From contig CAVYJM010000010.1 of assembly GCA_963768855.1 (NCBI GenBank), positions 145,691-209,690 on the forward strand: 64,000 nt of DNA, given 5' to 3'. The first letter of the stretch is position 1. Every line of letters starts with the position of its first letter. The translations under genes and the position numbers were made by a program. The DNA is from an uncultured Thermoplasmata archaeon. Its GTDB lineage: Archaea; Thermoplasmatota; Thermoplasmata; RBG-16-68-12. A model generated the notes under the pieces. That model was not told the origin of the DNA and made no database searches. It saw nothing but the letters and a program-made list of their open reading frames with translations. Shown in pieces: positions 2,083 through 6,358 of this stretch.

Positions 2083-3264
2083 ATGAAAGTGCTCATCCTA
2101 GGGGGATACGGGGCGATGGCGCAGTCCACCGTGCCCGATCTTCTCGAAAGCCCTGGTGTGCAGCGCGTAGGGATCGCAGGCAGGAACCTCGAGAAGGCGA
2201 AGGCCTTCGCGAACCTGTGGAAGGACGATCGTGCCGTGCCGATGAAGCTCGACGCGCGCGACAACGACGCGCTCAAGAAGGAGTTCAAGAACTGGGACGC
2301 GGTCATCAACAGCGCGTGGTACGACCTGAACGTCCCGATCATGGACTGCGCGATCAAGGCGGGCATTCACTACATCGACCTCGGCGGCCTGTACCACCAG
2401 GCCCTGCGCCAGCTCAAGATGGACAAGCAGGCGAAGGACGCTGGTGTCACGTGCATCCTCGGCATCGGCTCGACGCCCGGCACGATGAACGTGATGGGCA
2501 TGTACGGCGCGAGCAAGCTGGACAAGGTCCACAAGATGATGCTCCGCAGCAGCGGCATCACCGTTGAGGGAGGGGAGCCCGGGAAGTTCGTCGTGCCCTA
2601 CGCGGTCCGCACGATCTTCGACGAGTTCTCGATGGACGCCCCGATCCTGCGGGACGGGAAGATCAAGTTCGTCCCCGCCCTGACGGGCCTTGAGGTATCC
2701 GAGTTCCAGGCCCCGGTCGGCAAGGTCGAGGGCTACTACACGATCCACTCGGAGCTCGCGACGATGCCGCAGACGATCGGGAAGGGCATCAAGGAGCTCG
2801 ACTTCATCGTCGCCTTCCCGCACGAGTTCACCTCGACGATTGCCACCATCGTCCGCCTGGGCCTCGCGACCCGCCAGGAGCACGTCGTCGAGGGCCAGAA
2901 GGTCCGGCCGTACGACGTGACGTCGACGATCATCGACGACCTCCCGAAGCCGAAGGAGCCCGAGAAGGACCTCGACATCCAGCGCGTCGTGATCTGGGGC
3001 GAGAAGGACGGGAACCCGGTCACGCTCCGGTACGAGGCGGCGACCTGGCCGCACAAGAAGTGGAACGTCGGCGGCGGGACCGTGGACACGGGCGTGCCGC
3101 CCTCCATTGCGGCCCAGTGGATCCTGAGGAAGAAGACCAAGGTCACCGGTGCGATCCCGCCGGAAGTGGCGTTCGATCCGATCCCCTACTTCAAGGACCT
3201 GAACAGCCAGGGACGCGGGATTGTCGTCACCGAATTCGCGGAGACGACGAAGAAGCTGAGCTAG
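2083..3264 (+). CDS. Saccharopine dehydrogenase / lysine 6-dehydrogenase-like NAD(P)-dependent oxidoreductase
   Basis: N-terminal Rossmann MKVLILGGYGAMA; HYIDLGG and GIGSTPG motifs of the family. Confidence 0.85.
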   Translation: MKVLILGGYGAMAQSTVPDLLESPGVQRVGIAGRNLEKAKAFANLWKDDRAVPMKLDARDNDALKKEFKNWDAVINSAWYDLNVPIMDCAIKAGIHYIDLGGLYHQALRQLKMDKQAKDAGVTCILGIGSTPGTMNVMGMYGASKLDKVHKMMLRSSGITVEGGEPGKFVVPYAVRTIFDEFSMDAPILRDGKIKFVPALTGLEVSEFQAPVGKVEGYYTIHSELATMPQTIGKGIKELDFIVAFPHEFTSTIATIVRLGLATRQEHVVEGQKVRPYDVTSTIIDDLPKPKEPEKDLDIQRVVIWGEKDGNPVTLRYEAATWPHKKWNVGGGTVDTGVPPSIAAQWILRKKTKVTGAIPPEVAFDPIPYFKDLNSQGRGIVVTEFAETTKKLS

Positions 3265-3283
3265 ACGCCATCGAGATGATCTC

Positions 3284-4597
3284 ATGCCTGCCAAGGGCAA
3301 GTCTGCAGAGGAACGGCTCAAGGAGCGAGACGAGTACATTCCGAAGTCCGTGCGCACGGGCACGCCGATCTTCATCGACCATGCGAAGGGCGCCAAGATC
3401 GTCGATGTGGACGGCAAGGAGTACATCGACTTCACGGGAGGCATCGGCGTCCTGAACACGGGACACCTGCCCGACGCGGTCACGGACGCCGTGCGGGCCC
3501 AGCTGGACAAGTACCTCCACCTGTGCTTCATGGTCGTGAACTACGAGCCCTACATCGAGCTCTCCAAGCGGCTCCGGCCCACCCTGCCGTTCGAGCGGGG
3601 CAAGACGGCGTTTTTCAACAGCGGCGCCGAGGCCGTGGAGAACGCGGTCAAGATCAGCCGGGCCGTCACGAAGCGGCCGAACGTGATCACCTTCCAGAAC
3701 TCGTTCCATGGCCGCACCCTGCTCACCCTGACCATGACGGGCAAGTACCAGCCGTACAAGGTGAACTTCGAGCCCTTCGTGCCCCACGTGTATCAAGTGC
3801 CGTTCGCGTACTGCTACCGCTGCCCGATGAAACTCTCGTACCCCGAGTGTGGCGTCGCCTGCCTGCAGTACATCGACGACCTCTTCCGCGCCGAGGCGCC
3901 CGCGGATAAGACGGCCTGCATCGTCGCGGAGCCCATCCAGGGCGAGGGCGGATTCGTCGTGCCCCCGAAGGAGTATTGGCAGGGGCTGCGGAAAATCACG
4001 AAGGACAACGGCATCCTGTTCGTAGACGACGAAGTCCAGGCCGGCATGGGCCGCACCGGGAAGTTCTGGGCCACGGAGCACTTCGGGGTGAAGCCGGACC
4101 TGATCACCTCCGCGAAGGCGCTTGGCGGCGGTCTTCCTCTGAGCGCCGTCTCGGGCCCCGCCGACCTGATGGACATCCCCGTCCCCGGGTCGATTGGAGG
4201 CACGTTCGGCGGGAATCCGCTCGCCTGCGTGGCCGCGATTGCGAACCTCGGGTTGATTCAGAAGAGTCTCTCGAACGCCGCCGAGCTAGGCCGGATGATC
4301 GAGAAGCGGTTCAAGGAAATGGCGGAGGACCACGCGTGGATCGGCGACATCCGCGGCCTCGGGGCGATGCGGGCTATCGAGCTCGTGAAGGACCGGAAGA
4401 CGAAGGAGCCCGCGAAGGACGAGACGAACGCAATCATCGCGGAGGCGCGTGGCCGCGGCGGCCTGTTCCTCTCCGCCGGATGGTACGGGAACGTAATCCG
4501 CCTCCTGCCCCCGCTGAACATGGCGAAGGACGCCCTCGCCGAGGGACTCGACATGCTCGACGCGTCCTTCTCGGTCGTCGAGAAGAAGGTCGCCTGA
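3284..4597 (+). CDS. gabT: Class III PLP aminotransferase, 4-aminobutyrate transaminase-like
   Basis: DVDGKEYIDFTGGIGV, NSGAEAVENAVK, EPIQGEGG, DEVQAGMGRTG, PLP lysine in SAKALGGGLP, GGTFGGNP. Confidence 0.85.
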   Translation: MPAKGKSAEERLKERDEYIPKSVRTGTPIFIDHAKGAKIVDVDGKEYIDFTGGIGVLNTGHLPDAVTDAVRAQLDKYLHLCFMVVNYEPYIELSKRLRPTLPFERGKTAFFNSGAEAVENAVKISRAVTKRPNVITFQNSFHGRTLLTLTMTGKYQPYKVNFEPFVPHVYQVPFAYCYRCPMKLSYPECGVACLQYIDDLFRAEAPADKTACIVAEPIQGEGGFVVPPKEYWQGLRKITKDNGILFVDDEVQAGMGRTGKFWATEHFGVKPDLITSAKALGGGLPLSAVSGPADLMDIPVPGSIGGTFGGNPLACVAAIANLGLIQKSLSNAAELGRMIEKRFKEMAEDHAWIGDIRGLGAMRAIELVKDRKTKEPAKDETNAIIAEARGRGGLFLSAGWYGNVIRLLPPLNMAKDALAEGLDMLDASFSVVEKKVA

Positions 4598-4682: not shown

Positions 4683-6137
4683 TCACACGCTGGGCGGGAT
4701 CGGGGCCTCGCCGTACACCACGGCCTGCGCGTTGACGGCCTGGACCTGGACGCTCGGGGCCCGGGCCTTCTGCCGGCGGACCTCTTTCGCGACCGCCGCA
4801 AACCCGTTGTCCGCGACCTCGAGGGCCCACTCGATGTCCTCTTCCGTGTGCTCCGTGCAGATGAAGGCCCGCTCCGCGGCCTGCGGGATCCCGAACAGGA
4901 CGTTGTTCCCGAGGCAGTGAATGAACCAGTTCCACCAGCGCTTCGTGTTCACGTCGAGGGTGTCGCGGAAGTCGCGGATCTCGTCCTTCGTCGTGAAGTA
5001 GACGTTCCCGATGGACCCGACGTACTCGACCCAGGCTGGAAGACGCCGGTCGTCCGCGAGGTCCTGGAGGCCGCTGTAGAGCTGCCGTCCGAGGGAGTTC
5101 ACATGGTCGTAGTACTCCGGGTGGGCCTCGAGGATCTGAAGGGCCTTGAGGCCCGCCGCGACGCTGACCGGATGCCCGTTGTACGTGCCCGCGTGGAAGG
5201 TCCCGTGGCGCCAGCCCTTGCCCGGCTCGAGGACGTCCATGATCTGCGCCTCGCCGCCGATGCCCGCGAGCTGGAAGCCGCCGCCCGCGATCTTCCCGAA
5301 GCACACGAGGTCGGGACGGACATCGTAGTACTCGGCCGCGCCGCCATACGCCAGGCGGAAGCCGGTGAGGACCTCATCGAAGATGAGGACGATCCCGAGC
5401 TTGCGGGTGAGGTGACGGATCTTCTTCAGGTAGTTGTTCTTGGGAGCGATGACACCGGGTCCACAGAGGACCGGCTCGACGATGAACCCGCCGATCTCGT
5501 CCACGCCGTTCTCGAGGATCTCTGCGGTCGTGTCGTAGTCGTTGTACGGGACGATCGCCATCGTCTCCGCGATCGCCTTCGGGATCCCCTTCCCGTAGGT
5601 CACGGGCTGGTATCCGTTCATGCGCCGCGCGGTGCGGGCGTCCATGTCGAGGCTCATGAGCGCATAGTCGTTCGCGCCATGGTACGCGCCCTCGATCTTC
5701 GCGATCTTGTCCTTCCCCGTGTAGGCTCGGGCGACCCGCATCGCGTGCATCGTCGCCTCCGTCCCGCTGTTCGCGAGGCGGACCTTCTTCATCCATGGCA
5801 TCGCCTTCTGGATTTGCTGGATGTATTCCGGGAACAGCTCGGTCGTGATGCCCATCATCGAGCCGGACTCGAGCTGCTTGATCACTTCGAGGGCAATGTC
5901 GCGGTTGTTGTGGCCGAGGAGGAGGGCGCCGAACCCCATCATGAAGTCGAGGATCTTGTTGCCGTCCACGTCGTAGATGTACCCGCCGTCTCCGTAATCC
6001 GCGAAGAACGGATGCGGACGGAAGAAGCGGATGTTGCTCTCGACGCCGCCGGGCGATAGCTTCGCGGCACGCTTCCAGAGCTGGGCGCTCTTCTTGTGCC
6101 TCGTCAGGTACTTCCGGCTGAACTTCTGGGACGGCAT
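4683..6137 (-). CDS. Class III aminotransferase of the glutamate-1-semialdehyde aminomutase (HemL)-like clade
   Basis: GGVESNIR, DVDGNKILDF, NSGTEATMHAMRVARAYTG, FDEVLTGFR, GKIAGGG, GTYNGHP. Start ATG 6137 follows SD GAGGGTGA. No other hem genes nearby, so substrate is uncertain. Confidence 0.8.
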   Translation of the reverse strand: MPSQKFSRKYLTRHKKSAQLWKRAAKLSPGGVESNIRFFRPHPFFADYGDGGYIYDVDGNKILDFMMGFGALLLGHNNRDIALEVIKQLESGSMMGITTELFPEYIQQIQKAMPWMKKVRLANSGTEATMHAMRVARAYTGKDKIAKIEGAYHGANDYALMSLDMDARTARRMNGYQPVTYGKGIPKAIAETMAIVPYNDYDTTAEILENGVDEIGGFIVEPVLCGPGVIAPKNNYLKKIRHLTRKLGIVLIFDEVLTGFRLAYGGAAEYYDVRPDLVCFGKIAGGGFQLAGIGGEAQIMDVLEPGKGWRHGTFHAGTYNGHPVSVAAGLKALQILEAHPEYYDHVNSLGRQLYSGLQDLADDRRLPAWVEYVGSIGNVYFTTKDEIRDFRDTLDVNTKRWWNWFIHCLGNNVLFGIPQAAERAFICTEHTEEDIEWALEVADNGFAAVAKEVRRQKARAPSVQVQAVNAQAVVYGEAPIPPSV

Positions 6138-6143
6138 GGGATC

Positions 6144-6255
6144 ACCCTCAAGCGAAAATCCGCCCGGCCCACGGCCGGACCCGAGTTTCGGCAGGATGCG
6201 CCGGGACCGTGTCCGTTGCGACACGGGCCTCCGTCGGACCCCGGTTCGCTTGGGT
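6144..6255 (-). promoter_or_regulatory. Highly structured 5' leader (candidate riboswitch-like cis-regulatory RNA) that pairs with the SD
   Basis: ACCC-AAGCGAA / TTCGCTT-GA-GGGT closing stem enclosing two branched arms (see findings). Confidence 0.55.
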
Positions 6256-6358
6256 AGGTCATGATTGCCTGGAAACTATGAATAGGTTTCGTACTTAGGC
6301 GGGGGTTCATATATCCAAACGAAATACGCATAAAATTATATGTCGGAGCTAAATCGAT

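Follow-up and report, generated by a model that had tools for sequence, protein, structure and literature searches.

Two questions are raised by the leader of the class III aminotransferase gene that lies on the minus strand of the window (the whole stretch of 64,000 nucleotides analysed here): is it a genuine RNA structure, and, if so, does it sense a ligand? A preliminary description, made from the letters of this one sequence, proposed a fully folded leader with two similar branched arms that buries the Shine-Dalgarno sequence (SD) of the gene and might be a novel archaeal riboswitch. To our knowledge, few conserved, covarying cis-acting mRNA structures have been found in Archaea, and the known archaeal riboswitches are mostly imports of bacterial classes. 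The locus offers a concrete example, open to experiment, of proposed post-transcriptional control in an archaeal order without cultured members.

Gene and predicted promoter

The aminotransferase gene (4683..6137, minus strand) is monocistronic, begins with ATG at 6137 and encodes a protein of 485 aa. The product matches PF00202 (4e-61), as expected of the class III aminotransferase named in the preliminary description, and is GSA-aminomutase-like: it scores 400 bits with NF000818 (cut-off 398) and falls under the cut-off of the hemL model TIGR00713. The N-terminus read from ATG 6137, MPSQKFSRKY, is kept in all orthologues.

Upstream of the gene, and also on the minus strand, a tRNA-Leu(CAG) gene recognised by Rfam (6628-6540) is followed by an AT-richer spacer and then by a BRE (CGAAAC, 6291-6286) and a TATA box (CTATTCATA, 6285-6277). 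The start codon at 6137, the SD GGGUGAUCC (6147-6139) and the combined element CGAAAC-CTATTCATA (6291-6277) were found where the preliminary description had placed them. From its agreement with the archaeal BRE/TATA consensus we infer that this element acts as the promoter; the sequence CGAAAnnTATTCATAG hardly varies among 36 leaders from the genus or among orthologues that are more distant. Two more conserved AT-rich elements are located upstream of the BRE, at 6305-6342 on the minus strand. One of them, TTTGGATATATGAAC (TTTGATATACAAAG in most orthologues), lies 15-30 nt before the BRE, and a second TATA-like box, which reads ACATATAATTTT or GCTATACTTTT, is found some 60 nt upstream; the two may represent a transcription-factor operator or a second promoter.

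Counted from the first T of TATTCATA, the first C of a (G/A)CCC motif lies at a constant distance, 30-34 nt in every clade. Because this agrees with the usual archaeal spacing between TATA box and start, and because ATG starts across the genome show a weak excess 30-33 nt after AT-rich 8-mers, transcription should begin at P1, as the closing stem is called here, or 1-4 nt before it. The predicted position is about A6255 (6252..6256, minus strand), which is 29-30 nt past the initial T of TATTCATA. A strict promoter pattern for calibrating the TATA-to-start distance gave too few matches genome-wide. The preliminary description had likewise put it at the 5′ end of this stem, and the constant spacing predicts the same. 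If this start holds, the 5′ end of the mRNA would be base-paired. Soil metatranscriptome contigs of relatives (88-95% alike, and a small share) cover the leader region; one of them includes the coding sequence, the leader and approximately 170 nt upstream of the promoter, which could reflect DNA carry-over, and it gives no strand, start or level.

Folding of a single sequence

The proposed closing stem, in which ACCC-AAGCGAA (6255-6245) pairs with UUCGCUU-GA-GGGU (6156-6144), can form, and all of the pairs listed in the preliminary description are canonical. The complete fold drawn from them is, however, not the best one, at -47.8 kcal/mol versus a minimum free energy (MFE) of -60.7 kcal/mol; the mean MFE of dinucleotide shuffles is -51.3 kcal/mol. 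The z-score of the MFE against such shuffles, a comparison suggested at the outset, is -2.28 for the 112-nt leader and -1.31 for 131 nt with short flanks, which for a single sequence is only marginally beyond chance. At the 65-70% GC of this genome, about -80 kcal/mol is reached by any upstream segment of 190 nt. Since GC-rich upstream segments all fold strongly, the thermodynamics of one sequence cannot settle whether the fold is real, and the evidence that follows is comparative.

A conserved three-way junction

The conserved core of the leader is a three-way junction of the helices P1, P2 and P3, all on the minus strand. P1 (9-12 bp) pairs the predicted 5′ end of the transcript with the bases just before the SD. 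Its 5′ strand in this sequence is ACCC-AAGCGAA (6245..6255), and its 3′ strand (6144..6156) consists of UUCGCUU, a GA bulge and GGGU, the last of which overlaps the SD; the orthologous columns covary. P2 (6192..6244), which corresponds to arm A of the preliminary description, is a variable hairpin of 26 to about 75 nt among orthologues and is sometimes branched; its base (GG...CC) and its inner hairpin CCGUGUC-GCAACG-GACACGG (6226-6207) are covarying, and the latter is conserved. P3 (6162..6180) is a GC-rich hairpin of 6-9 bp with a loop of 3-5 nt, its covarying core here being CCGGCC-GUG-GGCCGG (6178-6164). The junction J3/1 (6157..6161) has the sequence GGAUU; within the genus it is moderately conserved, mostly as CUYRUUU, and it differs in other clades. 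Leaders measure about 110 nt in this sequence and 96-165 nt in relatives, with domain energies of -40 to -73 kcal/mol.

The two similar branched arms did not survive comparison with the eight closest relatives. In these the stem that closes arm A, CCGGGG/UCCCGG, is 59% paired and the CGA-AAC-UCG hairpin 44-54% paired; what is kept in this subclade of eight sequences is P1, the inner hairpin CCGUGUC/GACACGG and P3. Because the arm-closing stems and the CGA-AAC-UCG hairpin are so poorly kept, the two-arm picture is at most peculiar to this sequence. The small hairpin in question (CCGA-AAC-UCGG, 6181..6191, minus strand) is present in the MFE fold, is lineage-specific and lies outside the conserved core. 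The closure of P2 in this sequence is ambiguous, and the MFE alternative fares no better in the subclade.

A second clade possesses a leader of related build. Its first bases are (R)UGCCC, the CCC of which pairs with GGG in or next to the SD, and this basal step is followed by a small internal loop, P1 (CUGGG/CCCAG), a long P2 and P3. Both clades retain the basal CCC/GGG pairing within the SD or adjacent to it. The junctions differ: J2/3 is GNNN in the genus and CAAC in the second clade, and J3/1 is 6-7 nt long in the former and 0-2 nt in the latter.

Conservation and covariation of the helices

Orthologues within the genus share 77-97% protein identity. A DNA search located the locus together with its leader in 35 of the 38 genomes of the genus, and 36 leaders were recovered. 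All 36 present the same elements in the same order, namely the promoter, a 5′ strand of the form CC-RRNYGRA, a variable GC-rich interior, a GC hairpin and the 3′ strand; in the orthologues the last of these passes directly into GGAGGUGAUCC, and a TTG or ATG start follows. The position of the leader is fixed with respect to both the promoter and the SD. The two strands of P1 vary in step with each other, as in AAGUGAA/UUCACUU, AAGCGAA/UUCGCUU, GGGUGAA/UUCGCCU, AGAUGAA/UUCAUCU, UGCGGAG/CUCCGCU and CGCGGACG/CGUCCGCC.

In an alignment of 14 short leaders made with MAFFT only, 96.8% of the cells are paired, versus 27-55% when the partners are slid, and 8 of the 22 pairs have changed on both sides. 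A covariance-model alignment of 31 genomes gave 93.7% paired and 17 of 22 pairs changed on both sides, with 0 of 500 shuffles reaching the observed value on any measure; for 48 distinct metagenomic rows the corresponding figures are 93.6%, 15 of 22 and, again on every measure, 0 of 500. Alignments built with a covariance model are biased towards the structure to which the model was fitted. The MAFFT-only alignment is free of this bias, as is an alignment-free test in which P1 strands folded with their own partners reached -17.5 kcal/mol and with swapped partners -15.5 kcal/mol (0 of 5000 permutations). AU, GC and GU replace one another at several pairs of P1, the columns of which are 94-98% paired, while P3 is 95-99% paired and contains 4-6 covarying pairs in every alignment. 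Compensatory changes occur in 14 of 41 pairs in the second clade. All of these sequences belong to one family, which limits the depth of the conservation statistics.

The covariation check called for in the preliminary description thus bears out the closing stem P1 and the hairpins CCGUGUC/GACACGG and CCGGCC/GGCCGG, and the comparative data indicate that the leader is a real, evolutionarily conserved folded RNA. One could still suppose that GC-rich DNA folds in this way by chance, that the leader is a repeat, or that it belongs to a longer coding region, initiated at GTG and 513 aa in length; the single-sequence z-scores of only -1.3 to -2.3 and a reading frame that stays open upstream of ATG 6137 would fit such a view. 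We regard it as highly improbable given the strong covariation, the single copy per genome, the conserved SD and start codon at 6147-6135, and leader lengths that differ by non-multiples of three, the upstream open frames ranging from 508 to 565 aa. The same differences in length led us to reject a leader peptide or an extended N-terminus. Constraint at the RNA level within the first codons of the gene is no outlier (synonymous identity 0.76 versus 0.65 overall; rank 7 of 47 windows).

Single copies were also the rule where repeats were sought. BLAST and covariance-model searches returned one copy in the 2.87-Mb assembly, and a covariance-model search of 44 genomes of the family revealed no second copy in any genome, so that the leader is not the known repeat that had been named as a possible objection. 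Two 33-nt matches (88%) on contigs C6 and C1 were discarded as second copies, because they fall in a duplicated coding region, and so were the covariance-model matches G009:C75 and G019:C84, which are inside coding sequence. The former two (G000:C6:867888-867921 and G000:C1:7055-7088; L002, L003) are the same coding stretch found on two contigs in opposite orientation; this duplication suggests assembly redundancy, in an assembly with an estimated contamination of 7.7%. One genome of the genus has two diverged copies of gene plus leader on different contigs (G007:C211 and G007:C136; L009, L064), with 80% and 79% identity to the query, which could be a paralogue or a mixture of strains in the metagenome-assembled genome (MAG).

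Beyond the genus, one genome of a sister genus has an orthologue (70% identity) with the same arrangement of promoter, leader and SD. Metagenomic and MAG orthologues with 68-75% identity possess the same BRE/TATA and the second-clade leader, of 150-165 nt. At 56-59% identity the leaders of orthologues are long and differently built, and homologues at approximately 49% identity lie within an operon and are without a leader. Altogether the motif is represented by about 50 distinct sequences from soil and sediment Thermoplasmata.

The ribosome-binding site

The SD of the gene, GGGUGAUCC (6139..6147, minus strand), is complementary to the 3′ end of the genome's own 16S rRNA, GGAUCACCUCCU, with an 8-nt core match, GGUGAUCC; in orthologues the SD GGAGGUGAUCC is an 11-nt complement of the 16S 3′ end. 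The sequence GGAGGTGATC is rare in the genome, with 17 occurrences. So strong and rare an SD beside a stable helix fits a ribosome-binding site that competes with structure. Most orthologues (L006-L025 and others) use TTG as the start codon after the 11-nt SD and one uses CTG, ATG being found in this sequence and in a few relatives.

In all cases the 3′ strand of P1 either stops within 0-3 nt of the SD or extends into it. According to the preliminary description the SD is buried by the closing stem. This is true of its first 2-4 bases; the remainder lies outside the helix, and the predicted accessibility of the SD is ordinary, with 0.26-0.47 unpaired versus a genome median of 0.28 (the background being 184 other SD-bearing starts, a crude set derived from ORF-based starts). 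With only 2-4 of its bases in a helix, the SD is abutted rather than locked. Comparison of duplex energies with dinucleotide shuffles did not detect an additional anti-SD element in the 5′ flank, the P3 strand or the C-rich loop (mean z +0.42, none below -2).

Proposed function of the leader

The explanation that we tentatively prefer, without rating it quite as high as even, is that the leader acts by structure alone, that it damps or gates the initiation of translation on the aminotransferase mRNA, and that it probably also shields this mRNA from 5′-end-dependent decay. It would be a lineage-specific, cis-acting three-way junction in the 5′ untranslated region, in which P1 and P0 (the basal CCC/GGG) join the beginning of the transcript to the margin of the SD by base-pairing. 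Action through shape is suggested because evolution has kept the helices and not the unpaired bases. Initiation would be damped or gated because a very stable helix stands immediately before the ribosome-binding site, and with its 5′ end paired, so that no free end is left, the mRNA would probably be shielded from decay that depends on that end. Damping would rest on the abutting helix and on the 2-4 paired bases of the SD, most of which is predicted to be single-stranded.

That same prediction would suit a leader which does not repress at all and is purely a 5′-terminal stabiliser or insulator, protecting the message from exonucleases and preventing the GC-rich leader from mispairing with the ribosome-binding site. 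In its favour, P1 begins where the transcript is predicted to start, structure alone is conserved, and the arm tolerates changes in size. Nevertheless, a single hairpin would be enough for this purpose, yet a three-way junction with a constant P3 has been kept, and so has the basal CCC/GGG next to or inside the SD in both clades; we consider a pure stabiliser unlikely.

The retention of a three-way junction where a simple hairpin would suffice hints at recognition by some factor. A trans-acting RNA-binding protein, or the aminotransferase itself, could bind the junction by recognising its shape and so repress or activate translation; the topology of the junction is conserved while its sequence varies, and the element is specific to one gene. 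Against this, inspection showed no conserved loop or K-turn-like motif, and no candidate protein gene was identified that co-occurs with the leader, so that this possibility appears quite remote. By-eye inspection for K-turn, C/D-box, hammerhead-core and bulge-helix-bulge motifs found none. An attenuator or intrinsic terminator formed by P3 and UUUU was rejected, as the U-run is absent in divergent members and belongs to P1.

Is the leader a riboswitch?

A metabolite-binding riboswitch would use the junction as an aptamer for an omega-amine, a polyamine, an amino acid or a PLP-related compound, and the ligand would stabilise P1 and turn translation off. Such an element would be expected to consist of several covarying helices meeting in a junction, to lie in the 5′ UTR of a gene of metabolism and to have a P1 that reaches the SD, as this leader does; genes for omega-amine and polyamine metabolism are abundant around the locus of relatives, and spermidine riboswitches are known in bacteria (PMC10853860).

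One comparison concerns the bases that a ligand would contact. Identity between sequences is 0.72 at paired columns in the genus and 0.71 in the second clade, and falls to 0.51 and 0.54, respectively, at unpaired interior columns; fourfold synonymous sites of the gene itself give 0.54 and 0.57, and the region from SD to start codon 0.82 (genus). These values, from one family, indicate that the helices are constrained and that the unpaired bases are, on average, neutral. The signature of a ligand pocket, which would be the reverse, is missing: in either clade unpaired and junction positions evolve as fast as fourfold sites, and conservation falls on the paired ones. There are a few conserved unpaired motifs, namely GCCC at the 5′ end and, in the second clade, UUCCCCCAA and CAAC, and the retention of motifs in that clade would agree with an aptamer. 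On the other hand, the lengths and sequences of the junctions differ between the clades, and loop sequences are not conserved. P1, at 9-12 bp, is stable without a ligand, and no conserved alternative or anti-SD pairing was found in the interior of the leader (z +0.42). The element is moreover confined to one family and one gene, and belongs to no Rfam class.

The absence of a match to known riboswitch classes, noted in the preliminary description, was upheld by searches with Rfam. Its 4227 models, including TPP, SAM-I, lysine, glycine, guanidine and c-di-NMP, detected two tRNAs only in the whole window at the gathering threshold, and tRNAs only in ten orthologous loci. In a local search by E-value no family emerged, the best match being che1 with 15.8 bits versus 54.1. 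The idea of ligand sensing fares less well, given the neutrality of the unpaired bases and the differences between junctions. We judge a riboswitch of any kind improbable, and a new archaea-specific class, in which an aptamer for an omega-amine or polyamine-type metabolite, a substrate or product of the aminotransferase pathway, stabilises the helix between 5′ end and SD and so switches translation, is if anything slightly more doubtful. The structure-only leader that we prefer would probably have no specific ligand. Were the leader to respond to one, it would represent a new archaeal riboswitch class tied to amine metabolism, among the very few native to Archaea; if it does not, it still documents an architecture for archaeal leaders that closes the 5′ end onto the SD.

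Relation to known RNA elements

We found no paper describing this leader motif. It constitutes a new family, absent from Rfam, of an established kind of element, the structured mRNA leader that acts in cis.

Translational riboswitches in which P1 lies at the ribosome-binding site include TPP (RF00059), which also occurs in Thermoplasmata. Like these, the leader is a multi-helix junction in a 5′ UTR, the 3′ strand of P1 reaches the SD of a metabolic gene, and the helices are supported by covariation. Unlike them, it has neither a conserved junction core nor an Rfam match, its P1 is long and stable, it is restricted to one archaeal family and one gene, and a ligand is only a candidate.

5′-terminal stem-loops that stabilise mRNA are exemplified by the 5′ UTR of E. 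coli ompA and the ermC and aprE leaders of B. subtilis, simple bacterial hairpins which act against RNase E or RNase J. The resemblance lies in a helix at the very 5′ end (predicted here), near the ribosome-binding site, and in conservation of structure only, whereas the present leader is a three-way junction of 100-165 nt in an archaeon. In RNA thermometers such as ROSE and fourU the whole SD is paired in a weak, mismatch-rich helix. Control at the SD by structure alone, as proposed here, would be common to both, but in this GC-rich domain only 2-4 SD bases are paired. The fully paired SD and marginally stable helix of a thermometer are not seen, and the predicted SD accessibility hardly changes, from 0.44 at 15 C to 0.51 at 50 C.

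The bacterial spermidine riboswitch is a variant of SAM-I that acts on transcription termination (Salvail et al. 2023, PMC10853860). It shares with our leader its nature as a leader RNA, a gene setting related to polyamines and a proposed off switch. It differs in that the leader described here has no SAM-I match, is a three-way junction and lacks a conserved U-run after P3.

Genomic context

The order to which the lineage is attributed, Ca. Angelarchaeales, is described as catabolising amino acids and peptides (PMC9038741). In the window, saccharopine-dehydrogenase-like and GABA-aminotransferase-like genes (2083-4597, plus strand) are convergent with the aminotransferase gene. In relatives (L102-L109) the gene stays together with its promoter and leader as a single unit, and the neighbours include genes for a saccharopine-dehydrogenase-like protein, a second class III aminotransferase (GABA-aminotransferase-like), an aldehyde dehydrogenase and a short-chain dehydrogenase, as well as a PotD/PotA-like ABC transporter, a pyruvoyl arginine decarboxylase and a deoxyhypusine synthase. 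This neighbourhood suggests a role in omega-amine, polyamine or lysine-type metabolism.

The tRNA-Leu(CAG) gene is located 250-450 nt upstream on the same strand, and a tRNA was also present upstream in all four orthologous loci of the genus that were scanned with Rfam. In the second clade the upstream gene is saccharopine-dehydrogenase-like instead of a tRNA.
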